Source of the DNA: a virus | Strand: one strand, 5' to 3' | Length of the DNA: 64,000 nt | Virus record (IMG/VR): IMGVR_UViG_3300014911_000002 | Span: 25,380-89,379 of that record | Shown: positions 2,430-54,550 of the stretch, in pieces | Numbering within the stretch: the stretch's first letter is position 1 | How the letters are laid out: the number at the start of each line of letters is the position of its first letter | Program-made: the position numbers and the translations under genes | The notes under the pieces: generated by a model | The model's input: only the letters and a program-made list of their open reading frames with translations | The model's database searches: none | What the model was told of the DNA's origin: nothing

Positions 2430-2430
2430 T

Positions 2431-3234: not shown

Positions 3235-3242
3235 ATTACCTC

Positions 3243-3372
3243 TCAACCACCCTCAAATTTTGCGTTTAAACGTGTCTAGAATGGTCGTAGAGACGAGTTT
3301 TCGTCGAACGAATAGTAACATACTTGTGCGAGAAAAACTCGTCTCCTCGTCGATTTTAGACGCGTTTAACGC
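3243..3372 (-). repeat. Dispersed ~130-bp palindromic element, copy 1 (opposite orientation to copies 2-4)
   Basis: GTAGAGACGAGTTTT...AAAAACTCGTCTC inverted repeat; reverse complement aligns with 13575-13705. Confidence 0.85.
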
Positions 3373-3383
3373 GATATTTTATT

Positions 3384-4070
3384 TCACCTGATAATGCATC
3401 TCTGAACGTAATATTCTGCACGTTTTTTAATCATTTGTAACTCATCGTCTGTGAATTCTCTAATGTTCTTTGCACGTTTCGGATTCAATGCTTTCGTAAA
3501 TTTAAACCGCTGGAGAGCATATAATCTTGCTCCCTCGATATATTTCGCTATCTCCTCGATATCATCCATATCAAGAATTCCTCTGCCGATGGTCGTTCTA
3601 AATTCATAATCTAGATTGCTGTTCATCAACAGCCTTATGCTTTCCTTTATATCATTTATATTTACATCAGCACAAGCGATGTCTCGGTATTTCCCAAATG
3701 GACCTTTTATATCCATAGCTATGTAATCGACTAAATCCTGTTCGATAAGTTCCTCCAGCATTCTAGGATTAGAACCATTTGTATCAAGTTTGATTAGAAA
3801 ACCCATCTCCTTGATTTTCTTCAGGAAAGAAGGGAGATCTTCTTGCAATGTTGGCTCGCCACCTGTTATTACAACACCACTGATTTTCCTACGACGTCTG
3901 CCCAAGAAATCTAATATCTCTTTCTCGGAATAGACACCATCTTTTTGAGCTATAAGTTCTGGATTATGACAATAAAAACAACGGAAATTACATCCCTGAG
4001 TGAATATAACCGCTGCAATCTTCCCTGGATAGTCAATCAGGGAGGTCTTAAGAAGGCCGCCTATTCTCAT
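3384..4070 (-). CDS. nrdG: Anaerobic ribonucleotide reductase activating radical SAM enzyme
   Basis: SLIDYPGKIAAVIFTQGCNFRCFYCHNPEL, ITGGEPT, DTNGS; adjacent to nrdD. Confidence 0.93.
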   Translation of the reverse strand: MRIGGLLKTSLIDYPGKIAAVIFTQGCNFRCFYCHNPELIAQKDGVYSEKEILDFLGRRRRKISGVVITGGEPTLQEDLPSFLKKIKEMGFLIKLDTNGSNPRMLEELIEQDLVDYIAMDIKGPFGKYRDIACADVNINDIKESIRLLMNSNLDYEFRTTIGRGILDMDDIEEIAKYIEGARLYALQRFKFTKALNPKRAKNIREFTDDELQMIKKRAEYYVQRCIIR

Positions 4071-6163: not shown

Positions 6164-6172
6164 GGATATCAC

Positions 6173-6448
6173 CTAAGAACCTTGAATCCACGTACCACTT
6201 TCGTCATCCTTAACTAATGTAATGGAGAATGACGCACTTGGTTTTTCTTCAAGCAATTGTTCCAACCTTGCAATATCATTTGCTTCTATAGCGCTAAGGA
6301 TCTTCTCAAAGATATCCTTTTTGCGCGAATCGTAATTAATAGTTGGGTCTGGAGATTCCAATACACTTACAAACCTGATGAATGCGTGAGGGCACATATC
6401 GAACAGCATTGTACCTACCGCTGCTAATTTTACCTTTTCGTCGACCAA
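6173..6448 (-). CDS. Hypothetical protein
   Basis: 91-aa ORF with GAGGTGA RBS, in operon. Confidence 0.6.
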   Translation of the reverse strand: MVDEKVKLAAVGTMLFDMCPHAFIRFVSVLESPDPTINYDSRKKDIFEKILSAIEANDIARLEQLLEEKPSASFSITLVKDDESGTWIQGS

Positions 6449-6578
6449 TTCATCACCTCAAAAATCTTTTTTCAATCTCAGCAATGTATCTAATGCTAAG
6501 TCACGCATATATCTTATGTTCTCCTTTTTATCACTAGACTCGATTTCAACTGCATAGTTGGGAAGTACAATTCTAAAG

Positions 6579-6761
6579 CTACGCTTCACTTCTTTTGTTT
6601 CCTTCTTTGGCATTCCTAAACACCTCCAACCACATATCTACATCTCCAACTCTATCTGTTATTTTGGCATCAGATCCTGCAATCAGCTTTATGAACTCGA
6701 TGCGTTCTTTATCGTTCTTAAACCTTACTACCGCCTTATCATATCTTATGGATATTTTCAT
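6579..6761 (-). CDS. Hypothetical protein
   Basis: 60 aa, GGAGGTG RBS. Confidence 0.55.
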   Translation of the reverse strand: MKISIRYDKAVVRFKNDKERIEFIKLIAGSDAKITDRVGDVDMWLEVFRNAKEGNKRSEA

Positions 6762-6926
6762 AATGCACCTCCTAATCAGATTTCAAGGAAAAAACTGAAA
6801 TATCGTCTATATTGTACTCAAGCTCATTTCCATCAGCTGTTCTTATCTTTAGTATGTTGTTACAAAAATAAAAGTATAGGACATCAAGTGTTTCATTCTC
6901 TCCAGATTTTAGAACGAGGACGCATT

Positions 6927-7361
6927 TCATTTCCATTCTTCATAGGAAGGGTGACTTCTCACATATATTATCTTTGCATGAGTACGTTTTCGAAGTTCCT
7001 TTACAATGGTTGGGTTATCTTCAAAGAAGACATCAATGTTTTTGCTGTTTATTACGCTGGCTTTCTTTATTGCTGCAAGCTCTGGGGATAGTTCTGTTCG
7101 CTTATTGCCTATGAAAATGATATCACACTCGATGTTGTGGAATTCAAGCCAAGCTTTAGTTACATCCGAGAAGATCGTTGGTCTGGCTGTTATTATAATA
7201 ATTTTATCATCTGGTGATGCAAAATCCTTTGGATTTAATTGAAGAGGCGCTTCAAGGAAAAACAAGCGCTTTATCGATTCGGGAATAATTAGATTAGATG
7301 CCCAAGCTAGATATCCGCATACTACGCCATCCAAATCAAATCCAATATTCATGGTTTGCAC
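6927..7361 (-). CDS. HAD-superfamily phosphatase / 5'(3')-nucleotidase-like
   Basis: GFDLDGVV motif I, ITAR motif II, K and FFEDN motifs III/IV. Confidence 0.8.
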   Translation of the reverse strand: MQTMNIGFDLDGVVCGYLAWASNLIIPESIKRLFFLEAPLQLNPKDFASPDDKIIIITARPTIFSDVTKAWLEFHNIECDIIFIGNKRTELSPELAAIKKASVINSKNIDVFFEDNPTIVKELRKRTHAKIIYVRSHPSYEEWK

Positions 7362-8122
7362 CTCATAAATAAATGTATGGGCTTCTTATTATAAACTAGA
7401 AGATTTGCTACTAATCTGCTATCACGACTACTAGTTGTATATGATAAGAGGGTTTGACGTGACCCAATCTTCTTCTTTCGTACAGTTTTTATTTTCCACA
7501 TTATATTTAATATATCATCAAAATCTAAATCCCCATAGCTGCTCAAATGATTGAGCAATGATAATGCGTCATTTCTATAATATGCCCAAATGGAGTTGTC
7601 GAATATTATTTCCATTGCTACAAAACCTCTTTCACTCGATGCGATATAACCCATTTCATAATCATGTGGTGATTTAAAGCCGAAATATCTTGATTCTACC
7701 TCATCTATAAATTTTAATATTTGTAGTACACCGTCCAGTTCTCTGAACATCACTGAAACATCATCTAAGAAATGCATGGTCTTTTGCTTCCTTCTGTGAA
7801 TGCCAATTGTGTGAGACGCCATGGGTTCTAGAATGAAAGAATGGAGAGGCGAGCGGTGTTCTTTATCTCGAGATATTTCTGAAAGCATTCGGAAGAATAT
7901 CGGCTGTCTTTCAAAAGAGAATATCTCGATGAAATTATCTGACTCCGTATCAGCTATGGCATAGTCGAGGTCTTTGTTATCGTGAATTAAATTTGTCCGA
8001 AACTGTCCGATTATCGGATAAATGACAATATCATTAATAACCCCAATTGGATGACCAAAGCGTATTTCATCACTCTCAAGAAGTGCTGCAATATACTTCA
8101 TATTAGTCATAGAATAAAGCAA
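7349..8122 (-). CDS. Hypothetical protein, possibly a divergent ARPP-1/DUF6569-like domain
   Basis: Pattern IVIYPI...PIFF..SEI..KEHR....FILEP...IGI and G......VAMEII...W loosely recalls ARPP-1; weak. Confidence 0.35.
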   Translation of the reverse strand: MLYSMTNMKYIAALLESDEIRFGHPIGVINDIVIYPIIGQFRTNLIHDNKDLDYAIADTESDNFIEIFSFERQPIFFRMLSEISRDKEHRSPLHSFILEPMASHTIGIHRRKQKTMHFLDDVSVMFRELDGVLQILKFIDEVESRYFGFKSPHDYEMGYIASSERGFVAMEIIFDNSIWAYYRNDALSLLNHLSSYGDLDFDDILNIMWKIKTVRKKKIGSRQTLLSYTTSSRDSRLVANLLVYNKKPIHLFMRCKP

Positions 8123-8594
8123 GTGTACGCAACATTATTTCCTGCTTCAATAACTCATCCCATAAAAGCCCTTCACTTGCGGCTATACGTCTAAGACGTT
8201 CCAACGTTTTTTCATCCCTTATCGGAATATCTACATCCTTGAATATCATATCTATATAGTCTTCTCGAAATGTTAATAAGTCAGAGAGCGCATAAATATT
8301 ATATGCAATTTCTCTTGCAATTTCTGATGCTGTTGATATCCGCTTTAGTGTTGATTCACTTCTATTTACACGTCTATTTTCAAAGGAATCAATAATTCGC
8401 TCTTCGATTAATGTGGACGCAATATCTTCAATATCTTTATTATCACCGACTAGATACACTATAATAGATTTTTCTTTAGGTACCCATCCTAGATAAGACG
8501 CATCCGATATTTTCTCAAACGCATCCATAATATAACTGCATGTGATTATACTCGGTTTATAACCAAGATGGAGTACAACCTCATTAACTCGCAT
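8103..8594 (-). CDS. Hypothetical protein
   Basis: 163 aa, GGAGGT RBS. Confidence 0.6.
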   Translation of the reverse strand: MRVNEVVLHLGYKPSIITCSYIMDAFEKISDASYLGWVPKEKSIIVYLVGDNKDIEDIASTLIEERIIDSFENRRVNRSESTLKRISTASEIAREIAYNIYALSDLLTFREDYIDMIFKDVDIPIRDEKTLERLRRIAASEGLLWDELLKQEIMLRTLALFYD

Positions 8595-8743
8595 TTACCT
8601 CCCTCCGTTTCACTTGTATGACATAACATCCCGGGCACATCCGATGAATTTCACGAATACAATGATCGACATCATCATTTTTTGACCAAAAGAGCACTCG
8701 ATGTCGTTTCCCCATCCAACCGATTATACATTCATAGCAGATA

Positions 8744-9613
8744 TCACTCATTACCTTTCTCCATCATCTCTAACTTCTTGTTTTTATATTCCATATATCG
8801 TTCATCCTCAAGCTCAAACTGTTTATGGAGTTCGATACAGAGCTTTTTGATCTTTGTATGGTCAATGTCACTTAGGTCAACATCTGGCCTATTGACCCAT
8901 ATCGGCACTTTTCTTAGTTCCTCAAGCTCAGAGCCTCCATAATGGCCGACTCTGCCTCCTTCTCCATCTTGCAGATTCTCTCCATGATCTGCAAATACCA
9001 CAACCGTCTCTATATTATTTGTTATGTTCTTGAATGCCATCAATCTTGTTTTAAAATCGTCAACTCCTATTTTATACCAATCAAGGAGTTTTCGCCTTGG
9101 CATCCTAGCCATAAGTCTATCGCAGTTAACCACGCATGGAAGTTCCTTTGGTCCGTAACAATCTATGCCCCATGGACCATGTGTTAACCATGAATGATAG
9201 AATATCAAATCCCACCACTCATTTGTTGCCATAGACCATTTTCGTCCAACGTATTCAAGAACATCGTCATCATTATTTGTAACGGCATTCCATTTAATCG
9301 GTGGCAAAAATGTAAACTTATCTCTTCTTGAAGGCGGAAGCCATTTGGGTCCATTTCCAATCAATCTCGAAATGGTAACCCAAGAGTCAAAATGATCAAA
9401 AATGGTATCTTTACAAGCCTCTGGTCTGACTGTGTCTAAAAAACCTCTAACGCCGGTTTCTTCTGGAGGTTTTCCTGTTGCCACAGTTGCTAGAACTGGT
9501 GCAGTAAAGGTTTCAATAGCTCTAAATGAACCCCATGATTCTTCTGGGAAGACGCCTTTTAGATATTTTGTCGCAAAATCATATCGCAAGCTATCAGCAA
9601 GTATTAATATCAT
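8744..9613 (-). CDS. Alkaline-phosphatase/sulfatase superfamily hydrolase or transferase
   Basis: ILADSLRYD, T nucleophile (ETFTAPV), THGP, FADHGE, GH metal ligands. Confidence 0.8.
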   Translation of the reverse strand: MILILADSLRYDFATKYLKGVFPEESWGSFRAIETFTAPVLATVATGKPPEETGVRGFLDTVRPEACKDTIFDHFDSWVTISRLIGNGPKWLPPSRRDKFTFLPPIKWNAVTNNDDDVLEYVGRKWSMATNEWWDLIFYHSWLTHGPWGIDCYGPKELPCVVNCDRLMARMPRRKLLDWYKIGVDDFKTRLMAFKNITNNIETVVVFADHGENLQDGEGGRVGHYGGSELEELRKVPIWVNRPDVDLSDIDHTKIKKLCIELHKQFELEDERYMEYKNKKLEMMEKGNE

Positions 9614-42359: not shown

Positions 42360-42923
42360 ATGGCTAACGTAAACAAAATAGTCAAATACGGTTTAGAAGA
42401 GGAAGTTCTTGCCCTGCGAAATAGAAATCCTCCGCTGTCCTATCGTGAGATAGTTGACTATATCAAAGTGACTCATCCTGACATACCTGAGCTTCAAAAC
42501 CTTTCAGTGATGTCAATTAAACGTTTCTTGGAATCTAAAGAGCGTGAGAAAGTAGAAGATGCTATAGATAAAGGCGAAGATGTCACCTCTAAACTTTACA
42601 AGGAGTTTCGTGCAAAGATGCAGGATCTTGTATTGCAAATTGAACATCTGCAAAAATTAACAGAACCATTGATAGAAGAAGCTCTCGAAAATAAAGATAT
42701 TCATACGCTATTGAGGCTTCTTAAGGAACAAAGAGAAAACATTGAACAGATACGAAAAAATATGGTTGCAATTATGAACTATCAGGAAAACAGGTTTAGA
42801 CCGATAATGCAAGTTCAGGAAATGAGAGTAGTAAATATTCGAAATATCCTACTTGACTTTTCAAAACATTTATGTCCTCATTGTAGAAAGAAAGTTGCAA
42901 AACTTGTGGAGGAGGTCGAATGA
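42360..42923 (+). CDS. Probable terminase small subunit
   Basis: N-terminal HTH-like LSYREI...LSVMSIKRF, coiled coil; first gene of the arm, upstream of TerL. Confidence 0.55.
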   Translation: MANVNKIVKYGLEEEVLALRNRNPPLSYREIVDYIKVTHPDIPELQNLSVMSIKRFLESKEREKVEDAIDKGEDVTSKLYKEFRAKMQDLVLQIEHLQKLTEPLIEEALENKDIHTLLRLLKEQRENIEQIRKNMVAIMNYQENRFRPIMQVQEMRVVNIRNILLDFSKHLCPHCRKKVAKLVEEVE

Positions 42924-43467: not shown

Positions 43468-44913
43468 ATGGATGAATATTTCAGGAAAGTCTTAAGATAT
43501 GCAAACGACCCAGTTGCGTTCGCTCGCGATATAATTGGCATTACTGTTAAAAAATTTCATGCTGAATGGTTACGGGCGTTTGAACGCCACAAATATCTCA
43601 TATTGCTTGCTCCAAGAGACCATGGGAAAACCGTTATAGTAGGAACATATATCATTTGGAGAATTGTTAGGGACCCAGATGTCAGGATTCTTATTTGTAC
43701 AGTAAATCAATCGAAAGCTAGTGACATGATGTTTTTCATTCAATATCATCTTGAACATAATGAGAAGCTCATTGAGTATTTCGGTGAACAAAAAGGCGAT
43801 GGGGAATGGTCGAAGACGGAATTGAGGGTCAAGCGGAGAGGAAAAACTGGAATGGCCTTTCAGACACCAACACTTCAGGTTCTTGGTGTTGGTTCATCTA
43901 TGATTTCAGCTCACTATGATTTAATTATCCTTGACGATGTTGTGGATGAAAACAATTCCAAGACTCGATATAGAAGGGAAGCATTGGAATCATGGTACAA
44001 TTCAACGCTTATGGAGATGCTCGTTCCAACTGGTCAGATAATAGTGATTGGAACTAGGTGGCATGAAGATGATCTCTATAATTATCTTGCCAAAAAACCC
44101 GGATATGTTGTAAAGGTTTACAAAGCCATCATTAAGGAACGTACTGAGGACCAAGAGCCTGTAGTTCTTTGGCCGGAACGATATCCTTATGATGATGAGC
44201 AAGCTAAGAAATTGGGTTTACCCGAAGGAATTAAAACCCTTAAATTCATTCGTGAACACATTGGTGAGACAAAATTTGCAATGCAGTATCAGAACGAAAT
44301 TCGCAAATTTGAGGGTTCAAAAATTAAGCCGGATTGGATTGATGCCGCAATAGAACGTTGGAGAAAATTGGATGTAATCCCTGGGAATCTTAAGCGATAT
44401 ATTGGGGTTGACTTCGCTTCACCTGGCAAAGAAACTGATTATTTTGTCATTTGTGTTATCGGAATCGATGAGTATTCCGATATTTATGTCCTCGATTGTT
44501 TGAGGACAAAAGCCTCTTTATTCAGACAATTCGAGCTCATCAAAGAAATGGATGCTCGATGGAACCCAGTAAAAATCGGACTAGAGGCGACAGCTCAACA
44601 GAAGATAATAACAGACCAGCTGCAAGAAATTTCAACTATGCCTATAGTTCCAATAAAATCATCACATGTGAATGACAGAGATACGCGCGTTGATCGCTTA
44701 TCGATATTGTTTGAAACAAATAGAATCTATCTCAATCCTGAATTAGGACATCTCATTGATGAGTTATATGCATATCCGAGATCTGCACACGATGATTGTA
44801 TTGATGCGTTGACATTTGCAATACAAGCGGCATCATCTGGGAAGCCTGTAGATTGGAAATGGGTGGTGAATACTACTAAAACATCTAAGCTTTGGAATGT
44901 CAAGCTCATGTAG
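43468..44913 (+). CDS. terL: Terminase large subunit
   Basis: APRDHGKT Walker A, IILDD Walker B, GTRWH, GVDFA and HDDCIDA nuclease motifs. Confidence 0.95.
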   Translation: MDEYFRKVLRYANDPVAFARDIIGITVKKFHAEWLRAFERHKYLILLAPRDHGKTVIVGTYIIWRIVRDPDVRILICTVNQSKASDMMFFIQYHLEHNEKLIEYFGEQKGDGEWSKTELRVKRRGKTGMAFQTPTLQVLGVGSSMISAHYDLIILDDVVDENNSKTRYRREALESWYNSTLMEMLVPTGQIIVIGTRWHEDDLYNYLAKKPGYVVKVYKAIIKERTEDQEPVVLWPERYPYDDEQAKKLGLPEGIKTLKFIREHIGETKFAMQYQNEIRKFEGSKIKPDWIDAAIERWRKLDVIPGNLKRYIGVDFASPGKETDYFVICVIGIDEYSDIYVLDCLRTKASLFRQFELIKEMDARWNPVKIGLEATAQQKIITDQLQEISTMPIVPIKSSHVNDRDTRVDRLSILFETNRIYLNPELGHLIDELYAYPRSAHDDCIDALTFAIQAASSGKPVDWKWVVNTTKTSKLWNVKLM

Positions 44914-44944: not shown

Positions 44945-45193
44945 ATGGACCAAATATTTATAGGCGGAAAGCCACTAGCCAGCTATGTAACAGCTGGTCT
45001 GATATCGATAAGCAAAAACAAGTCTGTTAAGATTGTTGGAAGAGGAAGACATGTAAAGACAGCAATAGACGTTGCAGAGATCCTGAAAAGACATATGAAG
45101 AATCCAGAAACAAAAGTAGAGATAGGCTCTGAGCAATTTGACGAGAGGTACGTATCGACAATAGAAATCGAGTTGGTTGAAAAGGGCGAATAA
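44945..45193 (+). CDS. albA: Alba DNA/RNA-binding chromatin protein
   Basis: IFIGGKPLASYV, KIVGRGRHVKTAIDVAEI, VEIGSE...VSTIEIEL. Confidence 0.88.
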   Translation: MDQIFIGGKPLASYVTAGLISISKNKSVKIVGRGRHVKTAIDVAEILKRHMKNPETKVEIGSEQFDERYVSTIEIELVEKGE

Positions 45194-45197
45194 ATAT

Positions 45198-46451
45198 ATG
45201 GCTCTATTCCGCAATCCTTTCTCCGGTAAAAGAATTTCTGTATTTGAGCGAGATGATGGTAGCCCCAAAACTCTAGTTTATACATCAGGGAGGAGAAGCC
45301 CTCTATTTTCCTCTCGCGGTAGGAGTCTTTCCACACTCAATAAATACTGGCAGTTTTATGAAGGAGAAAGTACAGTATTCGCTGCGGTTAACGCCATAGC
45401 GTGGAACACAATTATGGTTGGCTTTACCATTCACTCTTCCGATGATAAGGCAGCTGCGCTTATCAGAGACTATGCCAAAAGATTGAGACTTCAGGCTCAT
45501 CTCCTTGATGCCATGATATATGCACTAGTCTTCGGAGATGCTTTCATAGAGAAAATTTATAATCGAAAGGGCGATATATCAAGATTGAAAAATGTTGATC
45601 CCAGAACGATGCAGATAAATTTCAACGAATATGGAGACATAGAAAGCTATCAGCAAGTAATTTCTACAAAGAAGGGCCCATTGATAGAACCTTCTAAAAT
45701 AATTCATCTTCGTCTTTTCCCAAGACCATCATCTCCATATGGTATATCTCTTCTAGCCGCTTCTGTTGATACAATAGAAAGGAAGATTAGAACCGATGAA
45801 GCCCTTACGATGGCGATGATTAGACACGGAACGCCCAAATACGATATAACCGTAAAGACACCAGAAGGAGGTCAAGTACCACCGGAAAGTGTGCTTGAAC
45901 AGATATCAGAGAAGCTATCAAATCTGCACGAGGAAAATGAGGTTGTCCATCCAGATGTAATAGAGATAGATACGATAGACGAACGCGGTATCCCAGGTGT
46001 AGAAGAATATTATAACTATTTCCAGACTCAGTTGGTTATTGGTCTACTCTGTCCTGAAGAAGCATTAGGTCTTGGTCGGGGTTCGACAGAGGCAACTGCC
46101 AGAATTAAAGCGGTCATGTTTGAGAGAATGATTAAATCATTCCAAATGAGAATCTCCGAAATTATAGAGCAAGAGCTTTTTAATGAAATACTCGAGAAAA
46201 ATGGTTTCGAACCAAATACTGTTTCTATGAGATTTAGAAGTGTTACAGAGGAAGATGAAGCAACGAAGGCCAAATGGCTCGGCAATCTTCTTCGTGGTTA
46301 TTCCAGACGTGAGGCTATGCCGTTTACAATTAATGAAATAAGAGCCATGTTCGGCTTCCCCCCAATTGAGGAAGGCGATATGTTGATAAACCCACCTTTA
46401 ATAAAAAAGAGTGAAGATGACGACGAAGACGTTGCACCTTCCGCTGATTAA
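45198..46451 (+). CDS. Portal protein
   Basis: FGDAFIE, IIHLR...PYGISLL, TINEIRAMFGFPPIEEGD; follows TerL. Confidence 0.9.
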   Translation: MALFRNPFSGKRISVFERDDGSPKTLVYTSGRRSPLFSSRGRSLSTLNKYWQFYEGESTVFAAVNAIAWNTIMVGFTIHSSDDKAAALIRDYAKRLRLQAHLLDAMIYALVFGDAFIEKIYNRKGDISRLKNVDPRTMQINFNEYGDIESYQQVISTKKGPLIEPSKIIHLRLFPRPSSPYGISLLAASVDTIERKIRTDEALTMAMIRHGTPKYDITVKTPEGGQVPPESVLEQISEKLSNLHEENEVVHPDVIEIDTIDERGIPGVEEYYNYFQTQLVIGLLCPEEALGLGRGSTEATARIKAVMFERMIKSFQMRISEIIEQELFNEILEKNGFEPNTVSMRFRSVTEEDEATKAKWLGNLLRGYSRREAMPFTINEIRAMFGFPPIEEGDMLINPPLIKKSEDDDEDVAPSAD

Positions 46452-46941
46452 ATTTGAAACTGGTCCAAAATATCTTGCAAAATCTGCTGATTGGCGAATA
46501 TATAATGATGCCGTAATTCTTGCTCCAGGTGTATGGACAGATGCGGCATCGAATCTCAAGACGTATTTTCCTCCAGAGGAGTTGAAGAAGGCAGCAACTA
46601 GATGGAAGGTAAACTATCTCAATGTGAATCATGAAATAAGAAATCCCCTTCTTAGAATAGGGTATGTCAAAAATACTTATTGGGATGGCGAGCGAATAAG
46701 AGGCGACCTTTATATTCTACCGACAACCACTGCAGGCAGGGACATCATCTCGCTTATAGATGCCAATATGGTTAATTGGCTTTCGCCAGAGCTGATATCT
46801 GAAGATAAATGGGACTCAAAGAAAGGCATTCATGTGGCTACAGACATTGAATTTATTGGATGCGCAGTGGTTTTACATCCTGCTTGTCCGAAGGCAAAAA
46901 TAAGAGAGGAATTTGCAGATTATGTCGGATATTTCTATTGA
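46417..46941 (+). CDS. Prohead-protease-like protein (DUF2213/XkdF-like fold)
   Basis: ILAPGVW...EELKKA...NVNH...IGYV...LSPE...AVVLHPAC. Confidence 0.55.
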   Translation: MTTKTLHLPLIKFETGPKYLAKSADWRIYNDAVILAPGVWTDAASNLKTYFPPEELKKAATRWKVNYLNVNHEIRNPLLRIGYVKNTYWDGERIRGDLYILPTTTAGRDIISLIDANMVNWLSPELISEDKWDSKKGIHVATDIEFIGCAVVLHPACPKAKIREEFADYVGYFY

Positions 46942-47230
46942 TGGCCCAATACGAGTAAAGGGATGCCCATATTGCGAACTTCTGAATGACGATTCCAACA
47001 TAGTTTACAAACCACGCAAAAACCTGGACGAATGCTCATTTGTTATAGTTAAGTGTCCACTTACCGGGAAAGATGTTGTAGTCGCTTCAGAACATGTAGA
47101 AACATTACCTCGTGGCATTTACAATCTTGCTATATATCATGCAAAGAAATATAAAAATACGAATGTAGGTATTAAAGTCGATCGAAAACGTGTGTCCGAT
47201 CATTGGCACGCTTACATTGAATTGATATAA
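46922..47230 (+). CDS. HIT-like zinc protein
   Basis: N-terminal CPYC, H at SEHV, C-terminal DHWHAY (degenerate HxHxH). Confidence 0.45.
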   Translation: MSDISIDGPIRVKGCPYCELLNDDSNIVYKPRKNLDECSFVIVKCPLTGKDVVVASEHVETLPRGIYNLAIYHAKKYKNTNVGIKVDRKRVSDHWHAYIELI

Positions 47231-49938
47231 TGCCGTTGAAAATTAATGTTTTAGGTGGCTGGGCATCATATAATCTTCCGAAAAAGTATGGGAAGCATTT
47301 CTCCCTTCTCTTAGATACTGGGAAGCATAAAATATGGATAGATCCTGCGGTATCGCTCAAAGAGGATGTTGATGCAATTATAGTAACCCAATCTGATGAG
47401 GATCATTATATTAAGCTCGATTCATACTTAGAAAAACATCCTGATGTTCCTGTCTATTCAACTAGGGCTGTTATTAATAAGATTAACATTTCCCATCGGA
47501 AAAATCTGAAGGCTGTAAGAAAGCCACTTAAATTTGATGGGCTTGAAATTATCTTTATGGCCGTCCCGCATAAGGTTAATGTCCCTGCGGTCGCCTTGAA
47601 AATACGATATAGAGGTCATGTCATAGGCATAGTTCCAGAATTTAATTTTCTTGGCGAACAAGAAATCGAATATCTCAAGAATGCTGTATTGATTGCTGGA
47701 GTTGGCGAATATGAAAAAAGGAAGCCAAATGATACAAAAGCTACATTTAAAGAACTAATTGAATATGCTAACGGGGAGTTATCCCCTAAGAGGTTGTATT
47801 TAACAAATCTTAGAAAAGCCACATTCGACAAGCACAAGAGAGATATTTTAAAAGAATTGAAGAAATTTAACGGCGGAATTCTCCTTGATGGTGCCAGTTT
47901 GACCTTTAATGGGGATGAGGTTAAAACTGAAGGTCTATATCTCATTTCACCACATGCTACTCTAATCTACGAAGGCTTAAAAACAATGATTCTCAAGAGT
48001 AGGAAATTCGATATGGCTGGAAAGAAATTCATTCTTTGTGATGACACATATGCATACGGGACAATTGAGCTGAATGAGCCTGAAGAAATCAATGAAGCAC
48101 AATTCGAGGAATATGCTGATGAACATCTAGTCACGAAAGAAGAGATGAAGAAATGGGGTTGGAATTTCCCCTTGTATGCATATCGAATAAAGGCCTTTAT
48201 ACCGTACGAGGAGCCTATAGAGCTTTCACTTCCCAAAGGCATCCAAACCTTCGTTCGAGATGTGGAACAATATTTCGAGAAACTTCATTTACAAGAATTT
48301 AGAAGCACCGGAGTTGATTATGATATTAGGCATATAAATGAACGGTGGAGAGAAGCAATAGCGGATCTGAGGTATTTGGGCAATAGTGGATATCCTCGCC
48401 TCAAGCGTGGTGAGAAATGGGGTGATTGGACTCTTGAGGATGTTCTAAAATACTTTGCAAAACTTGTAGATGCATTGAGATCTGTGCACTTCCCAATCAT
48501 TCCGCCGTACAACGAGAAACTTTATCGTGAGTATACAGGAAAGGACCCCAAAAAAGCGAAAAAATCTTCATATTGGAAATGCTATCGTGAGGCTGAAAAA
48601 TACATGAAATCTAAACCACCAAAGGATATTGCAGAGGCGAAGGAGTGGGATAAGAAACGAAGGCAGAAGATTTCTTTGAGGAAGAAAGCAAGAAGTCTTA
48701 AAATTGGTTATTACTCAGAAGCAAAGCCATATTACAGAGGCTATTTCCAGGAGCTTGCTGATGAATTAAAAGCGATAGGCTGGGATGAAGAAAAACTTCT
48801 TGTCGATTGTAAATGGGATGGCCTGCGGATGACAATTGGCAAGGTTAATGGGAAAGGTTTTGCATACGTTGACCCCGAGGATGTCAAGGAAAAGAATCCG
48901 AATGTATCGAATCGGATACCTGCAATAATAAAGGAGATTGAAGAAAACTTTCCTGACGATACGGTTCTTGACGGTGAATTTCTTGCCATCCATCCCAATG
49001 GAAAAGAGATGCTTCACAGAACCGTAGCAAATTCTCTTTTAAACTCTAAGGCTTCTGGTGAAGAATTGGAGCGTTATGCAATCATTGTTGCCTTTGATGT
49101 TATATTCTACGATGGCCTCGATTTGCGTGATCAACCACTTCTTGAAAGACTTGAATATCTTTCTAGACTTAAGCCAACTAAGCACATTTGGATTGAACGA
49201 ATTTCCACCTCTCTTGACAAGAAGGCAGATGGATATATTTGCAACGGCAGCGATATCGATTGCATAATGAAGGCTGCAGATATCATAGCTAGTGGAAAGA
49301 ATGGGAGACCGAAATTCTGTGCTGAAGGGGTCATGCTAAAACGCTTGGACGGACCATACGAATATCCGCAGAATCATTACTGGATGAAAGTGAAATTCTA
49401 TCATGAGCTTGATTTGCGGGTTATTAACAAAAAATTAGTCAAAGGTTCCAAGGACGTTTATAATTATTATCTCGGGTATGATACACCAAGGGAGTATGCC
49501 GAAGCGTACCTTAGTATGACAACAAAAGACTGGTATGGTAAAGTTCATTGCTTCAAGAATGGCAAAGTTATAGCCGCTGGAAAGGATTGCAAGAAATTTT
49601 TAAACGATAATAATGTACTGTTTGTAACATTAATGGGCAAAACAGATAATCATAAGGAGGTATTGCCAATCAAGATTGGTGATATCATTCGAATTGCAGC
49701 AGAAGAGGTTTTGAAATTTGAGAACCCTAAATTTCCAGAATATCCAAGATACTCATTCTATATCGGTAGAGTATTAGAGCCCATACCAGAAAAAGACATC
49801 ACCGACTCTCTTGAGACCATTGATAAACTTTCTTCTTTTGAGCCACAAAGAATACCAATTGAAGAACTTCAACATATTACACAAGATATTGCCAAGATGG
49901 GTGATGTATATGTTAGGATTATCAGATTCCATCAATGA
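47230..49938 (+). CDS. Multidomain protein: MBL-fold + ASCH-like + ATP-dependent polynucleotide ligase
   Basis: MBL-like LGG..IWIDP..TQSDEDH..VPH; ASCH-like GLYLISPHATLIYEGLKT; ligase motifs DCKWDGLR (KxDG), LDGEF, AFDVIF, EGVMLK, WMKVK. Confidence 0.8.
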   Translation: MPLKINVLGGWASYNLPKKYGKHFSLLLDTGKHKIWIDPAVSLKEDVDAIIVTQSDEDHYIKLDSYLEKHPDVPVYSTRAVINKINISHRKNLKAVRKPLKFDGLEIIFMAVPHKVNVPAVALKIRYRGHVIGIVPEFNFLGEQEIEYLKNAVLIAGVGEYEKRKPNDTKATFKELIEYANGELSPKRLYLTNLRKATFDKHKRDILKELKKFNGGILLDGASLTFNGDEVKTEGLYLISPHATLIYEGLKTMILKSRKFDMAGKKFILCDDTYAYGTIELNEPEEINEAQFEEYADEHLVTKEEMKKWGWNFPLYAYRIKAFIPYEEPIELSLPKGIQTFVRDVEQYFEKLHLQEFRSTGVDYDIRHINERWREAIADLRYLGNSGYPRLKRGEKWGDWTLEDVLKYFAKLVDALRSVHFPIIPPYNEKLYREYTGKDPKKAKKSSYWKCYREAEKYMKSKPPKDIAEAKEWDKKRRQKISLRKKARSLKIGYYSEAKPYYRGYFQELADELKAIGWDEEKLLVDCKWDGLRMTIGKVNGKGFAYVDPEDVKEKNPNVSNRIPAIIKEIEENFPDDTVLDGEFLAIHPNGKEMLHRTVANSLLNSKASGEELERYAIIVAFDVIFYDGLDLRDQPLLERLEYLSRLKPTKHIWIERISTSLDKKADGYICNGSDIDCIMKAADIIASGKNGRPKFCAEGVMLKRLDGPYEYPQNHYWMKVKFYHELDLRVINKKLVKGSKDVYNYYLGYDTPREYAEAYLSMTTKDWYGKVHCFKNGKVIAAGKDCKKFLNDNNVLFVTLMGKTDNHKEVLPIKIGDIIRIAAEEVLKFENPKFPEYPRYSFYIGRVLEPIPEKDITDSLETIDKLSSFEPQRIPIEELQHITQDIAKMGDVYVRIIRFHQ

Positions 49939-50942
49939 AGGTATTAATTGAATACCAGGACGGAACAGTTGATTTTGTGGATGATAACAAGCTCGAAAAG
50001 CTTACCCTCCTTGAATACACTGAACTTTATCACTCGAAAAGCTTACCACAAACTTGGCAACGGATATTGAAAGACAAGGCTGTGACAAAGAAAGATATTT
50101 GCGAATGGTTGAAATTGAAACATATTCCCGAGGACATTTTTGAGCAGCTCAGAATGAAGTTGCAGCCATTGCCAAAAATCTTCTACGTTGATTATGATGA
50201 AGGTATAGCTTGGGCTCAAATGCATATTAGAGGATTAAATCCAGATGACACGAAAAAATATCAGGAAGGCAAACTTTCATTTGCCAAACTTATCGAAAAC
50301 CATAGTATTCACATAGATTTGCGTATGAAGTTTAAAAAGGCTTTCGTCCAATGGGTTATAACTCAAGACCATATACCAGATTATTTCGATACTATAATAG
50401 GTAGAGTAGATAAAAAGACTGGTAATGCAAGTAAAGGTCTTGCGATAGTAAAGCCATCTGCTGAAGAGCCATCTCGGGAAGTTAAAAGTAAAGATAAGGA
50501 GCTAATAATAGGTCCTGAAGATGCAAAACTAATTGAAAAGTATGTTCTCTTTGATAAATCATACATTATTCCAGCAGGAGACGTTGGTGCGAGTCCTTAC
50601 AAGGACGCATATATGTGCGCAATATGGATTGGTAAAGTTAAGGCGGGAGTGCAAAGGCCAGACTTGCATGAATATTTCCTCTATCCAGGATCTGATATGC
50701 CAAAACGAAATCAAGAATTATTCAACGGTCGGTTTATAATCCGGTGCTTTAAGGCTGGTAGCGATAAACGCTGGTGGGTTTGGAAAGCATATAATGATCC
50801 TTATCCTATGGATTCCATACTTCACGCGGATTGTGGGTATTATTATCCTATCAAGGCGGAGAAGTTAGAGAAGTTTGGAAGGGAAGCATATAGGGAAATG
50901 TCTGTTAAGAAGTTTTCAAAGAAACTATCATGTGGAACATGA
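49935..50942 (+). CDS. LigD-type 3'-phosphoesterase (PE)-like protein
   Basis: AQMH...SIHIDLRM...QWVI and IWIG...HEYFL...FNGRFIIR...WWVWK match the PE pattern Q.H...HYDLRL...W and G...L.GR....W. Confidence 0.6.
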   Translation: MKVLIEYQDGTVDFVDDNKLEKLTLLEYTELYHSKSLPQTWQRILKDKAVTKKDICEWLKLKHIPEDIFEQLRMKLQPLPKIFYVDYDEGIAWAQMHIRGLNPDDTKKYQEGKLSFAKLIENHSIHIDLRMKFKKAFVQWVITQDHIPDYFDTIIGRVDKKTGNASKGLAIVKPSAEEPSREVKSKDKELIIGPEDAKLIEKYVLFDKSYIIPAGDVGASPYKDAYMCAIWIGKVKAGVQRPDLHEYFLYPGSDMPKRNQELFNGRFIIRCFKAGSDKRWWVWKAYNDPYPMDSILHADCGYYYPIKAEKLEKFGREAYREMSVKKFSKKLSCGT

Positions 50943-51016
50943 ACGGAGTCGGGAAAGCAATAGAAGAGCTCAAAGTTTTGTATTTTAAGATTCTTAAAGA
51001 GTTGGAATAAATAGTT

Positions 51017-51307
51017 ATGACTCTCGAAGAGAATTTCCGAGAGTTTTATGGTAGAGTCATTGCTACTCTGGAATCAATCAACAAGAACGAGGATGAGCTT
51101 GCGGAGAGGATTAGAATTCTTGAAAAAAAGATCGATAAAAAGACCGATGAAATATGGTCGGCTGTAAATTCTATTAGAAATACTTCTATTAAGGATATTG
51201 CGACAGACATTTCTGCCCTTAAAATGAAGATTTCCATTCTTTATTGGCTGTTTGGAATTATGTTCACTTTCCTGTTGGGTATCTTGGGGAAAATATTGCT
51301 CGGCTGA
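51017..51307 (+). CDS. Coiled-coil protein with C-terminal TM (holin/XhlA-like)
   Basis: Heptads then ILYWLFGIMFTFLLGILGKILLG. Confidence 0.6.
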   Translation: MTLEENFREFYGRVIATLESINKNEDELAERIRILEKKIDKKTDEIWSAVNSIRNTSIKDIATDISALKMKISILYWLFGIMFTFLLGILGKILLG

Positions 51308-51309
51308 TT

Positions 51310-53073
51310 ATGGATTTAGAGAAAATTAAAATGTTAACTAAGAAGGGAGAGCTTGAATACGCTCCGATTCCTCCCTCCGGAAGAGGTACGAACGATAAAA
51401 AACTAAAATTAAAAGACATTCTCCCGAAATTGAAACCATTTTCTGTGAGAAAGCCCGTTGCATATATAGTTGGTTCGCTTGCTGTCCATGGTGAGAGTGA
51501 TAATGATATAGATATAGTCGTTAGGGGCGAAGATTGGTCTGATGAGCAGAAAACCGCTTTTGACTTTAGAATCTTTCGAATGTTTGCCGATATACTTGGC
51601 GTTCCCTATGACGATGTTCCGAAATACGTTTCAATTCATTATTCGAATGAAGGCCCCTTTACATCCTATGTCCCAATATATGAAGAAACGTTTCTTCCAA
51701 TAGAAAATCCCCAGATTATTCATATGTCGAAGTCAAAATCATCTGAAGTTTCATTTAATATTAGAGGGAATTTTGACGTATTCTCCAATGGAAAACAAAA
51801 ATCAAGACGCATAATTGCTGGTTATGCTTCTGTCGCTGTAGTGGACAAAGATAATGAACTTATACCAGTAGATGTGCTTCGTGATGCCATCAAAACACTT
51901 CTCAATGACGAATTTTACGCAAATGTAATGCTAAAGCATAGGAATATCCAAATTGGACGTATCCTCAAGGAATATAACGGTTTGAAAACTCATGTTGATG
52001 ATAAGGGTTTATTTATTGTTGCTGAGATTCGTGACGATTTGAAAATTGCTGACAAAGTTTGGGAGGATATTCTTGCTGGAAAGCTAAATTCATTCTCCAT
52101 CGCTGGTGAAGCGCTATTAAGTCATCGAGAGTGTGATGATACTAAATGCTACACTGTTGTGGATAAGATAAATCTCTATGAAGTTTCGATATGCGAAGCT
52201 CCTGCAAACCCGCTTTCAGGCTTTATAGTTATATCCAAATCAGATGATGTATGTGGATGTTCGAAGGAATGCGATAAAATGGCTGAAGAGATTTTGGAAG
52301 ATAATGTATTAAAGAACGACGAGGAGACAGGGGAAGAGCCTACAGAAGAGACGACCGAGGAAGCGAAATCTGAAGATAACTCGGAATTTGAGGCATGGAA
52401 AGAAGCAATAGAGCGCAAGCTTGAAAGTCTCACAAAAATAGTCTCCGAGCTAGCAAACAAGCAAGACGAAGATAACGACGAAGATGATGAGGAAGAAAAA
52501 GCCGAGAAGTCAGAGGAGACTCCCGAAGAAACAGACACTAAAGACGAAGAGAAAGAAAAGGAAGAGAAAGCTGGTGGGCTAATTGCTGCAATCAAAGATA
52601 TGTTAGCTCAGATAATAGCAGATACAAAGAATAAAGAAATAAAAGAGAAATTAAATGCACTCATGTCATTGGTAGAGAATCTAAGAGGCAAAGGATATCC
52701 ATATCCCTATCCAATGCCGAGTAATTATCCCTATCCATCGAAATACCCTTATCCATCGAAATATCCATACCCAACAAAATATCCATATCCAGCGAAGAGT
52801 GAAGATTGGCATAAGATGGTAGTTGATGCAATTGATGATCTGTGGGAGAAATATTCTGCATTGAAATCAGAGAGCGATATGGCTAAGGAGATAGAAGAGT
52901 TGAAACTAGAGATAAAAGCCAAGGATGACCAGATTAAAGCATTTCAGAAAAGATTGGAAATACTTGAGAAGTCAGAAAAGCCTCCAGAGACTATAAATCC
53001 AGATGAGGAGATCTCAGACGAAGAGGAAGTTAGTGACATAGTTATTAGTCACGGTGTTATTTACAAGAAATAG
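51310..53073 (+). CDS. Nucleotidyltransferase + HK97-type prohead protease + scaffold fusion
   Basis: YIVGSLA...DNDIDIVV (Pol-beta/MNT); IAGYAS..D..H..IG..GLFI..FSIAG..EVSI...PANP protease; acidic/coiled-coil tail. Confidence 0.85.
   Translation: MDLEKIKMLTKKGELEYAPIPPSGRGTNDKKLKLKDILPKLKPFSVRKPVAYIVGSLAVHGESDNDIDIVVRGEDWSDEQKTAFDFRIFRMFADILGVPYDDVPKYVSIHYSNEGPFTSYVPIYEETFLPIENPQIIHMSKSKSSEVSFNIRGNFDVFSNGKQKSRRIIAGYASVAVVDKDNELIPVDVLRDAIKTLLNDEFYANVMLKHRNIQIGRILKEYNGLKTHVDDKGLFIVAEIRDDLKIADKVWEDILAGKLNSFSIAGEALLSHRECDDTKCYTVVDKINLYEVSICEAPANPLSGFIVISKSDDVCGCSKECDKMAEEILEDNVLKNDEETGEEPTEETTEEAKSEDNSEFEAWKEAIERKLESLTKIVSELANKQDEDNDEDDEEEKAEKSEETPEETDTKDEEKEKEEKAGGLIAAIKDMLAQIIADTKNKEIKEKLNALMSLVENLRGKGYPYPYPMPSNYPYPSKYPYPSKYPYPTKYPYPAKSEDWHKMVVDAIDDLWEKYSALKSESDMAKEIEELKLEIKAKDDQIKAFQKRLEILEKSEKPPETINPDEEISDEEEVSDIVISHGVIYKK
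52696..52796 (+). repeat. Coding ~18-bp tandem repeat (YPYPxK) in scaffold domain
   Basis: YPYPYPMPSNYPYPSKYPYPSKYPYPTKYPYPAK. Confidence 0.9.
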
Positions 53074-53138: not shown

Positions 53139-53519
53139 ATGGCCTTTATAACAATAGAAGATGATATAGGGATTCAGCTTGGGACATTCGCATACAATTT
53201 CAAGGCATCTGGCAACATCTTGAAAGGGCAAGCCGTAAGGATGATAGCTGACGGTGCTGTTACTCCCGTATCCGCTTCTTCTCAAACAGCGATAGGTGTT
53301 GCTGATTATGATGCAAGCCACGGCACTATGGTTGCCATATATTGCGGAGGTAATATAGTAAGATGCGGCTTGTCCGGTTCGTCTGCACCAAGTGTTGGTG
53401 ACCAAGTTGGTGCATTCAAAGATGGTTATCTTTCGCACGAGACCGGAGGAAGGATCTGCGGAATAGTTGTAGAGGCACCATCTTCAAATCCAGGAGTAGG
53501 AAAGGTGCTTCTCATTTAA
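53139..53519 (+). CDS. Capsid decoration/cement protein (DUF2190-like)
   Basis: A..I.KGQAV...AIGVA...GDQV; immediately before the major capsid gene. Confidence 0.65.
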   Translation: MAFITIEDDIGIQLGTFAYNFKASGNILKGQAVRMIADGAVTPVSASSQTAIGVADYDASHGTMVAIYCGGNIVRCGLSGSSAPSVGDQVGAFKDGYLSHETGGRICGIVVEAPSSNPGVGKVLLI

Positions 53520-53572: not shown

Positions 53573-54550
53573 ATGAGTAAGCTTACAAGACTACTCCAGC
53601 TTGCATATGCAGGCAACAGCGAGAGAACCAAACTGCTGAATGATCCCCACGTGATTCACGATCTTGGAGGTAAAAACTCCAAGACCTATAAGACTCTCCT
53701 TCAGTCTAATGCAATAAACGAGACCACATTGCTGCAAGAAGAAGTCTGGAAGACAGTAGTTGAAGGTGCCGAGCCTTTCAAGTGCTTTAGAGATGTTTTG
53801 CCAATCATCAATACTGATTCTTATTCAGTGAGAGTTGTAACTGGTGAATCTGGCGCATATGCCCAGGATATAGCTGAAGGTGCTGAAATACCGATAGATA
53901 CATCATCCTTCTCAAAGACAGATATTACAATAAAGAAGATTGGAACCAGACCACTGATAACAAACGAACTCATAGAGGATGCATTATTCGATGTAGTCGA
54001 GTTGGAGCTTAAAAAGGCTGGTGCAAGACTGGAAAACAAGTTAAACAGAGACTGTTTGCAAGCCATATTATCAGGTATGGATGGCATAACCGATGTGGAC
54101 CCCGCAGGCACAAATCTGGCCGTATCCGATTTGGCCACAGCAAGAGCCTTAGTGGAGGCAGAGGGAAGAATGCCTGACACTTTGATAACTCATCCTATCG
54201 CCGAGGGTCAGCTATTAAAAGACTCCAATTTAGTCTATGTCGCATATGCCGGTCAGGGCAGAACCCTTGAAACAGGCGAGTTGCCAAGAATACTTGGTCT
54301 GAAGCCATACACACTTTCCGTAACAGTCGAAGATGGATTTACATATTATTGGGATGGCACGGACGCTGCAAACCACTATTATGCTTTGGTCCTCGACTCC
54401 AAGAACACTGCTTACATAGCGATGAGAAGAGACATAACAATCGAAAGGTATGACGACCCAATTCACGATCTACTTGGAATATCTTGTACAATGAGATATG
54501 GTGTTGCGGTAGTTGACGATAAGGCTGGAGTAAGAATTCTGGCAAAGTAA
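53573..54550 (+). CDS. Major capsid protein (HK97 fold)
   Basis: IAEGAEIP, KKIG....ITNELIED, PDTLITHP, ILGL, RYG..V. Confidence 0.92.
   Translation: MSKLTRLLQLAYAGNSERTKLLNDPHVIHDLGGKNSKTYKTLLQSNAINETTLLQEEVWKTVVEGAEPFKCFRDVLPIINTDSYSVRVVTGESGAYAQDIAEGAEIPIDTSSFSKTDITIKKIGTRPLITNELIEDALFDVVELELKKAGARLENKLNRDCLQAILSGMDGITDVDPAGTNLAVSDLATARALVEAEGRMPDTLITHPIAEGQLLKDSNLVYVAYAGQGRTLETGELPRILGLKPYTLSVTVEDGFTYYWDGTDAANHYYALVLDSKNTAYIAMRRDITIERYDDPIHDLLGISCTMRYGVAVVDDKAGVRILAK

Follow-up and report, generated by a model that had tools for sequence, protein, structure and literature searches.

The IMG/VR virus record IMGVR_UViG_3300014911_000002 (89,379 bp, with direct terminal repeats) carries, between its portal gene and its major capsid protein (MCP) gene, a block of genes encoding an ATP-dependent ligase (lig902), a protein resembling the 3'-phosphoesterase (PE) of LigD (pe335), and a nucleotidyltransferase (NTase) that is fused to a prohead protease with a predicted scaffold-like tail (prot609). 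The block occupies 46411-53073 on the plus strand of the right-hand 64 kb of the record, which is referred to here as the window. Beside this core, the complete genome has HIT-like, ASCH-like, and metallo-beta-lactamase (MBL)-like extras and a second S78-like gene. We consider it likely that the block represents a DNA end-healing and sealing set. The fuller reading, that the protease/scaffold brings the set into the procapsid and that the enzymes then work on the viral genome upon entry, is given a probability of about 0.5.

A coupled gene block between the portal and capsid genes

All of the open reading frames (ORFs) that the initial annotation had placed in the block were found where it had them, on the plus strand and with the portal and MCP genes on either side (Table 1). 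We regard them as real genes and not chance ORFs because 20 IMG/VR loci carry homologues, at 40 to 90% identity, in the same order. The proposed translational coupling was also evident: the orf105 stop codon and the lig902 start codon overlap in TAATG, and the lig902 stop codon and the pe335 start codon overlap in ATGA. orf105 may itself start at the ATG at 46922. The listed start codon of prot609 (609 aa) is a TTG, and the ORF overlaps orf96 (51244-51310). An ATG at 51310 falls 2 nt past the orf96 stop codon, and because homologues begin near this ATG in the alignment it is probably the true start, giving a predicted protein of 587 aa.

Among the domains of the block, the ligase and the S78 protease of prot609 were the only ones to score above Pfam cut-offs. 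Reference alignments for the other domains were prepared from genomes matching the Pfam models (30 LigD_N, 30 HIT, and 16 ASCH domains; for NTP_transf_2, 29 domains, of which 16 short archaeal PF01909 domains were kept after a length filter). These were compared with alignments of the viral families by using hhalign, and column shuffles of the reference alignments served as controls. Each of the four viral profiles (PE-like, NTase, HIT-like, and ASCH-like) matched its own proposed family only; wrong-family pairs gave P values of 0.043 to 0.77.

The ligase and its accessory domains

The adenylation domain of lig902 matched Pfam DNA_ligase_A_M (PF01068) over aa 520-722 (E 2.4e-17; 63.7 bits versus a cut-off of 26.2). 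The motifs that the initial annotation had described as intact were located in the sequence: the nucleotidyltransferase series conventionally named and defined as motifs I (KxDG), III, IIIa, IV, and V reads CKWDG at 527-531 (with K528), LDGEFLA at 580-586, VAFDV at 620-624, EGVMLK at 699-704, and WMKVK at 718-722. No match to the Pfam OB-fold model DNA_ligase_A_C was found in lig902; the alignment to phrog_114, which covers aa 507-836, runs through aa 836. The PDB matches of the ligase were archaeal and human DNA ligases, including 3gde and human LIG1/LIG3. A six-frame search of the 89,379-bp genome revealed lig902 as the sole match to PF01068.

Three further domains precede the ligase. The N-terminal domain scored 22.5 bits against Pfam Lactamase_B_2, compared with a cut-off of 27, and a phmmer search of the PDB matched it to the MBL domain of flavorubredoxin (E 0.0016). 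Its metal motif, TQSDEDH at aa 53-59, had been called degenerate, and this was upheld by an alignment of the window protein with seven relatives. The relatives read SSPDxDH or TQADRDH, and H-x-H is missing in 8 of the 8 aligned sequences. In comparison with H-x-H-x-D-H, the D-H pair alone is kept, and the later canonical His positions are occupied by H/E and N. An active canonical MBL nuclease was ruled out, as the metal motif is degenerate across the family. The suggestion that the next domain is ASCH-like held, weakly. No match to ASCH (PF04266) was returned by hmmscan for lig902, and hhalign of the 20-sequence family against 16 archaeal ASCH domains gave a score of 22.5 (P 0.0028; probability 11%) that was reached by none of 50 shuffles. 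The middle domain had no Pfam match and no usable Atlas match. In two related loci (L012 and L018), the middle and ASCH-like domains sit together in the next ORF.

A remodelled PE-like protein

Searches with pe335 as a single sequence gave little. No match to Pfam LigD_N (PF13298) was obtained at E <= 0.1 by hmmscan or at E <= 10 in a six-frame search of the genome, and phmmer against the PDB returned chance-level matches only. A profile of 19 pe335 sequences found no PDB chain, and a Pfam scan of the 19 homologues gave coiled-coil noise only. With tblastn against phage records, we obtained fibritin noise plus a match to ANMV-1. In an Atlas feature search, which serves as a lead only, the top match was a LigD-PE cluster (0.89; 176 of 256 features shared).

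The LigD-type PE assignment put forward in the initial annotation nevertheless stood up to profile comparison. The pe335 core (aa 88-300; 50196-50834) aligned with LigD_N with a score of 32.0 (P 3e-4; probability 39%), which none of 100 shuffles reached, and it was bridged to LigD_N through 23 intermediates. Homologues numbered 19 in a word-indexed search and 145 at E <= 0.001 in a profile search of 1.84 billion representatives. A hidden Markov model (HMM) of bona fide archaeal PE domains matched many of the weaker family members in the same regions, among them P0127 (2.2e-11) and P0129 (6.2e-9; E-values for a set of 158). The 23 bridging sequences matched canonical PE at 98.9% (E 3.5e-17) and the pe335 family at 99.9% (E 2.2e-34), scores that are inflated by the pre-selection of this set for matching both HMMs; the HIT, NTase, and ASCH controls gave 0.1%.

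Passages of the study of the archaeal enzyme CkoPE assign Mn binding to a His/His/Asp set and phosphate binding to an Arg in its active site (PMC3082917). pe335 retains counterparts of the CkoPE Mn ligands H9, H15, and D17, of phosphate-binding R19, and of Q7. Q95 and H97 are invariant and H126, D128, and R130 are at least 90% conserved, and these residues align with the Q-x-H ... H-x-D-x-R of canonical PE. Between the two motifs, the pe335 family has an insert of 26 to 28 residues. At the aligned position there is no counterpart of the phosphate-binding His51 of CkoPE: the segment E-D-H...Y, which holds H51 and Y55, faces K-P-S-A-E-E-P in pe335 and K..q.P..W in the intermediates. The family has its own invariant R241-x-D243-x-H245-E246, together with conserved K173 and G215-x-V-G-A, and R241, D243, H245, and E246 might substitute for the lost phosphate-site residues. 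Because Q-x-H and H-x-D-x-R are kept, an insert has been gained, His51 is lost, and an R-x-D-x-H-E of its own is present, pe335 is best read as a remodelled member of the PE superfamily and not a plain LigD_N domain.

An NTase fused to the prohead protease

The fusion of an NTase to the prohead protease was confirmed; prot609 comprises, in one frame, an NTase, an S78 protease, and a scaffold-like tail. As a single protein it had no hmmscan match for its NTase and gave chance-level matches only in a phmmer search of the PDB. The claim that this NTase is of the Pol-beta/MNT type was supported by hhalign of the 18-sequence family against NTP_transf_2 (score 38.7; P 6.5e-6; probability 85%; none of 100 shuffles as high). 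Inspection of the primary structure revealed VGS...DIDIV at aa 76-92 and PYDD at aa 121-124; the GS, the DxD, and the third Asp align with the references and are conserved in the 18 sequences. The same NTase domain forms the N terminus of the ligase protein of ANMV-1.

The S78 domain of prot609 scored 44.3 bits (cut-off, 21), is the sole over-cut-off match in the genome, and also matched PHROG head maturation protease families. Its His lies in MLKHRN (aa 229-234) and its Ser in NSFSIAG (aa 282-288), and both columns are conserved in 15 sequences. The remainder of prot609 is, from its sequence features, a putative scaffold-like region. Five YPYP repeats are found in this tail at 52696-52791, within Y-P-Y-P-[ST]-K-like units.

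At the start of the block, the 176-aa S78-like protein scored 18.4 bits against the Pfam cut-off of 21, with His in NVNHE (aa 71-75) and Ser in WLSPE (aa 123-127). Comparison with the S78 domain of prot609 by hhalign (P 0.013) aligned the His and Ser columns, which are conserved in nine sequences, and the protein is probably a second one with the prohead protease fold.

orf105 alone had no Pfam or PDB match. The initial annotation had called it HIT-like, and the comparison of a six-sequence profile with 30 archaeal HIT (PF01230) domains was consistent with this (score 29.7; P 1.4e-4; probability 52%; none of 100 shuffles as high). Its motifs are CPYCE at aa 18-22, SEHV at aa 59-62, and DHWHAY at aa 96-101. 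The middle His of the HIT triad is the nucleophile. The orf105 family reads [DE]-H-[WF]-H-[AC]-[YE], in which the first two His residues are retained and the third is Tyr or Glu.

Synteny, fusions, and inteins in related viruses

Synteny was assessed by tblastn of 14 window proteins (E <= 1e-4) on the 20 IMG/VR loci with a PE-like gene. Three of the contigs begin at the PE-like gene or within it, and in each of the 17 loci with upstream DNA the ligase precedes that gene. A downstream NTase-protease protein was found in 16 of the 20 loci, the exceptions being L012, L014, L018, and L020. By this search the portal and the MCP were each detected in 11 of the 20 loci. Fewer loci had the 176-aa S78-like protein (9), Alba (7), and orf105 (6). 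With Pfam, portals could be added for L012 and L014, where they immediately precede the ligase protein, and a capsid gene for L012. The head-module position is retained down to 27 to 35% portal and terminase identity. It is also seen in ANMV-1, where an 866-aa ORF directly after the portal contains NTase, ligase, and PE-like domains, and in a remote metagenomic virus (two contigs, L114 and L115), where the order is portal ... PE-ligase-XkdF (P0119 type) ... MCP. The proposed link to head genes therefore holds in the 20 loci, in ANMV-1, and in the remote virus.

Fusions among these genes recur. Ligase and PE-like domains share one open frame in six distinct IMG/VR loci (L004, L009, L010, L012, L014, and L018). 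Pfam analysis of 139 PE-like representatives revealed 43 with DNA_ligase_A_M, 10 with Lactamase_B_2, 10 with Intein_splicing, 3 with Peptidase_S78_2, 1 with Peptidase_S78, and 2 each with DUF2213, UDG, and Pyr_excise. P0070, P0076, and P0077 join a PE-like domain, with or without NTase, to S78 (phmmer); P0119, P0145, and P0134 join one to an XkdF-type S78_2 domain; and P0075 and P0080 join one to DUF2213, which we take to be a protease. The ORF that follows the ligase-PE protein in L012 fuses the middle and ASCH-like domains to an XkdF-type protease. No relatives of P0119 and P0077 were found among the viral contigs searched. Two larger proteins were also observed: P0100 (1689 aa) has pyrimidine-dimer glycosylase, ligase, MBL, and PE-like domains, and P0041 (1282 aa) has ligase, Dam methylase, and PE-like domains.

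Inteins of about 320 to 350 residues interrupt the PE-like gene at two places, inside H-C-D-L-R between H and C (L018, ORF 1334-5554) and after G-x-V-G (L021, ORF 7377-9590), and an intein follows H-R-T in the ligase (L003, ORF 4223-8014). Intein_splicing/LAGLIDADG domains occur in 10 of the 139 family representatives, and inteins were noted in P0017, P0020, P0024, and P0060. As judged from the sequences, intein sites within the PE-like and ligase genes fit with indispensable active sites.

Two of the related loci, L002 and L004, recur as contigs of metagenome-assembled genomes (L022, QNBZ01000001.1, and L023, QMSR01000007.1) from Guaymas samples. The genomes are labelled Planctomycetota and Thermoplasmata. 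At least one of these two binnings is probably wrong, and the labels were therefore not taken as evidence of the host.

Flanking genes and layout of the window

Positions 1 to 42 kb of the window are coded on the minus strand, and a plus-strand structural arm begins at 42.3 kb; both the coding strand and the GC skew flip sharply at about 42 kb. This matches the two-arm layout, an enzymatic arm and a structural arm, described for ANME-1 head-tailed viruses in the relevant passages of PMC9894754. The closest named relatives of the MCP are haloarchaeal tailed viruses (28 to 29% identity). Because the MCP is nearest to these viruses, an Alba gene is present, and ANMV-1 is a relative, the sequences point to an archaeal host. 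The Alba gene, of a chromatin- or RNA-binding type, lies inside the packaging operon and has a same-place match in 7 of the 20 related loci. orf96 encodes a membrane-type helix, which is odd within a head operon; it has a same-place match in 9 of the 20 loci, and Pfam gave sub-threshold coiled-coil matches only.

In IMG/VR the record is assigned to the direct-terminal-repeat class, yet its completeness estimate is 24, probably because there are too few references for the estimate to work. Scans for sigma-70-like promoter sites (49, versus 35.2 +/- 6.0 expected) and for terminator-like sites (9, versus 9.7 expected) are uninformative for an archaeal virus. The best sigma-70-like match in the region (47203-47231; 11/12, extended TG) ends at the lig902 start codon and, in an archaeal virus, probably reflects either chance in A+T-rich sequence or a TATA-like element.

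Table 1. Genes and domains of the block and its flanks (coordinates in the window)
Feature	Residues	Coordinates	Strand	Basis or remark
Small-terminase-like ORF		42360-42923	+	Head of structural arm
Large terminase		43468..44913	+	tblastn to annotated terminase large subunits; conserved in relatives; left flank
Alba-family protein		44945..45193	+	Pfam Alba E 5.7e-14; between terminase and portal
Portal		45177..46451	+	Pfam Portal_Mu 6.5e-17, Phage_portal 5.7e-12; PHROG portal families
S78-like protein	176 aa	46411..46941	+	Pfam Peptidase_S78 E 0.0025, below cut-off
orf105, HIT-like	105 aa	46913..47230	+	Profile-profile comparison
lig902	902 aa	47230..49938	+	MBL-like/ASCH-like/ATP-dependent ligase
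lig902, MBL-fold-like domain	1-232	47230..47925	+	Lactamase_B_2 (PF12706) E 9.7e-5
lig902, ASCH/PUA-like domain	233-345	47926..48264	+	PDB phmmer 2dp9/1wk2 (TTHA0113) E 0.032
lig902, middle domain of unassigned kind	346-500	48265..48729	+	Separate gene in some relatives
lig902, ATP-dependent ligase adenylation domain and C-terminal region	520-902	48787..49938	+	
pe335, LigD-PE-like	335 aa	49935..50942	+	Profile-profile comparison and bridging sequences
orf96, coiled coil and C-terminal hydrophobic helix	96 aa	51017..51307	+	Translation
prot609, NTase, S78 protease, and scaffold-like tail (predicted)		51244..53073	+	Pfam, hhalign, PHROGs
prot609, Pol-beta/MNT-type NTase	23-170	51310..51753	+	18-sequence family versus 16 PF01909 domains
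prot609, S78 prohead serine protease	186-327	51799..52224	+	Pfam Peptidase_S78 (PF04586) E 2.8e-11
prot609, acidic, coiled-coil, YPYP-repeat tail	340-609	52261..53073	+	phrog_80, phrog_617, phrog_3270 alignments extend in
Head decoration/cement-like protein		53139..53519	+	Phage_cement_2 E 1.3e-4, below Pfam cut-off; phrog_673 E 4.1e-8
HK97-fold MCP		53573..54550	+	Pfam Phage_capsid E 2.1e-16; right flank

Discussion

Since relatives fuse them, the ligase, the PE-like enzyme, and the NTase are predicted to work together, as do the LIG, PE, and POL modules of LigD. The initial annotation had suggested circularisation of the genome, repair of breaks, or repair of RNA as the purpose; among these, DNA is favoured over RNA as the substrate because the fused partners in relatives include UDG (two), pyrimidine-dimer glycosylase (two), and Dam methylase (one). 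Entry into the procapsid is suggested by the constant place between portal and protease/capsid, the repeated head-protease fusions, and the NTase-protease-scaffold polypeptide. It follows the logic proposed, in the relevant passages of PMC5512222, for those phage polyvalent proteins that end in an assemblin-like peptidase.

From these sequences we infer a possible course of events, in which the enzymatic activities, the loading into the capsid, the processing, the ejection, and the substrate are all predictions. The enzymes would be produced late, with the head proteins, and would enter the procapsid by physical linkage to the S78 protease/scaffold. This linkage would be a fusion for the NTase in the window virus and a fusion for the ligase and the PE-like enzyme in relatives. 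Proteolysis would then free the enzymes, which would remain with the packaged DNA and accompany it out of the particle at infection. Once inside the next cell, they would draw on host ATP and Mn2+; blocked 3' ends would be cleaned, nucleotides added or trimmed, and nicks or ends of the viral genome sealed ahead of viral gene expression. orf105 may act as a de-adenylase and the ASCH-like domain as a nucleic-acid binder.

Comparison with known systems

Bacterial LigD combines LIG, PE, and POL and acts with Ku, and passages of PMC3082917 describe the stand-alone archaeal enzymes CkoPE and MbaPE. Here, too, the gene of an ATP-dependent ligase is coupled to that of a PE-superfamily domain, and relatives have the two fused. 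The Q-x-H, the H-x-D-x-R, and the C-terminal strands are common to LigD, CkoPE, MbaPE, and the pe335 family, and the NTase of the block likewise completes a predicted three-activity end-processing set. pe335 differs from the PE of LigD in its 26- to 28-residue insert, the loss of His51, its own R-x-D-x-H-E, and a score below the LigD_N cut-off, and the set is viral and located in a head operon. The POL of LigD is of the primase-polymerase type, in contrast to the NTase of about 130 aa and Pol-beta/MNT type found here. No match to Ku (PF02735) was obtained at E <= 1 in the 89,379-bp viral genome. A true LigD system of nonhomologous end joining was ruled out by the lack of a Ku match in the genome and the different kind of NTase.

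Phage polyvalent proteins are predicted to be packaged and injected, and their assemblin-like peptidase, when present, is C terminal and probably processes the protein in virion assembly, according to passages of Iyer, Burroughs, Anand, de Souza, and Aravind 2017 (PMC5512222). As described there in part, they are multidomain enzymes encoded beside portal and head genes. The block has the same layout: lig902 has at least four domains, and S78 follows the NTase in prot609 and the PE-like or ligase domains in relatives. It differs in its content, a DNA ligase/PE/NTase set, in the division of this set among a number of coupled genes in the window virus, and in belonging to an archaeal virus group. 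In its main text (supplement aside), the paper does not mention LigD, ASCH, or metallo-beta-lactamase and uses "archaeal" once, and its three uses of "ligase" are one passage on an ATP-grasp RNA ligase and two reference entries. The same source lists, in passages on proteins that are loaded into heads and ejected with the DNA, some after protease processing, T4 Alt and the internal proteins, the N4 virion RNA polymerase, and the P1 Dar proteins. None of these is a DNA ligase or end-healing enzyme, and, unlike for the present set, their loading signals are known.

A further comparison is with African swine fever virus (ASFV). Sections of PMC12172490 report that it packages the ligase NP419L, the Pol X O174L, and the AP endonuclease E296R, which were found by virion proteomics, the rationale being that viral DNA is repaired before replication begins. 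The block likewise encodes an ATP-dependent ligase, a minimal Pol-beta-superfamily enzyme, and a putative end-processing enzyme, although carriage with the genome is here a prediction. ASFV is an unrelated eukaryotic virus with another capsid, whereas the present set has a PE-type end cleaner and a proposed route via an HK97-type head protease/scaffold.

Weighing the explanations

Several observations weigh against loading into the capsid and action at entry. In the window virus, lig902, pe335, and orf105 are unfused to a protease, the NTase being the only one of the enzymes that is fused. We noticed no targeting signal on the proteins of the set, no dedicated search for cleavage or targeting motifs having been made. 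A fused head-protease-type domain occurs in just 8 of 158 PE-like family sequences, 2 of them with DUF2213, and near-duplicates among the loci (L006/L007, L015/L016, and L019/L020) leave fewer independent lineages than 20. An NTase on the main scaffold would be present in many copies, which would have to exit or be degraded before DNA fills the head. As the sole ligase of the genome, lig902 may be the general ligase of the virus. The assignments themselves are also exposed: single window proteins match no Pfam model for PE, HIT, ASCH, or NTase, the direct hhalign probabilities are modest (PE 39%, HIT 52%, and ASCH 11%), and the bridging set was pre-selected. The metal motif of the MBL-like domain is degenerate, pe335 has no His51 counterpart, and the full-length alignment of orf105 sets HxHxY on the HxHxH of the HIT triad.

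Phage packaging needs sealed DNA, as in T4, and one alternative is that the enzymes are made late, stay unpackaged, and mend concatemeric or damaged viral DNA during packaging, by closing nicks, tidying 3' ends, and removing flaps, so that the terminase receives an intact duplex, with the place in the operon reflecting timing. We consider this unlikely but the most serious of the alternatives. It would accord with the translational coupling of the genes within the head operon, with lig902 being the genome's sole ligase, with the finding that neither the ligase nor the PE-like protein is joined to a head protein in the window, and with the need to remove an NTase from every scaffold copy before the head fills. 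It leaves unexplained the fusions of PE-like, ligase, and NTase domains to S78, S78_2, and DUF2213 in independent lineages, as well as the NTase within the protease-scaffold polypeptide of the window virus. Many large viruses encode their own ligase, and these could also be an ordinary replication or recombination ligase and accessory repair genes whose place in the structural arm is accidental. This agrees with lig902 being the sole ligase of an 89-kb genome and with the ligase and protease alone passing curated family cut-offs, but it appears improbable, as the head-protease fusions recur and the position between portal and protease/MCP is kept at 27 to 35% portal/terminase identity, in ANMV-1, and in L114/L115. 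No relative with the ligase/PE-like pair among replication genes was seen in the loci examined, a systematic search not having been made. In addition, the clean split into structural and enzymatic arms in such viruses, as described in part of PMC9894754, makes the block a retained exception.

RNA is a common substrate of ASCH/PUA-like domains and MNT-type NTases. The set could accordingly be an RNA-repair kit that, like T4 Pnkp/Rnl1, mends and rejoins RNAs of the host or the virus, such as tRNAs cleaved by host defence nucleases, with the NTase restoring 3' ends and the ASCH-like domain binding RNA. We find this very unlikely. DNA ligases give the best matches to the ligase in both PDB and Pfam, the UDG, pyrimidine-dimer glycosylase, and Dam methylase that are fused in relatives are DNA enzymes, and a Pfam scan revealed no polynucleotide kinase or 2',3'-cyclic phosphodiesterase in the block. 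In favour of RNA, among 80 relatives 3 touch Pfam RNA_ligase and 9 touch mRNA_cap_enzyme, although these are cross-hits within one superfamily; moreover, LigD PE strips 3' ribonucleotides and 3' phosphates, as stated in passages of PMC3082917.

Novelty and implications

The component superfamilies are known, and packaged phage enzymes are an established idea. No printed description was found (supplements not covered) of a ligase/PE/NTase set in a head module, of its fusion to a head protease, or of this branch of PE, and none of the entries in literature listings names a head protease with a fused ligase or PE. Supplements aside, the ANMV-1 paper (PMC4372165) does not use "ligase" or "portal," and the ANME-1 virome paper (PMC9894754) does not use "ligase." Within the PE superfamily, the pe335 family appears to form a new branch, marked by inteins and with a predicted alteration of the phosphate site.

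Packaged enzymes of tailed phages have so far served to jump-start transcription or to disarm host defences. If the set is indeed packaged, it would add genome repair at entry to these roles and would give tailed viruses an equivalent of the repair enzymes that ASFV packages, with S78 and XkdF proteases linked to cargo loading. We tentatively extend the idea, with somewhat less than even confidence, to a large and so far undescribed class of archaeal and bacterial tailed viruses in which the head protease/scaffold would load a complete set of DNA-mending enzymes, namely a ligase, a remodelled PE, a minimal NTase, and in some cases glycosylases, so that the genome would arrive with its own enzymes. 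Breaks introduced by restriction or CRISPR nucleases of the host may be resealed by such a kit as well. Particles that had become nicked or end-blocked over long dormancy in hot, damaging sediments could then still start an infection, which would offer a reason for the persistence of these viruses in DNA-damaging environments.

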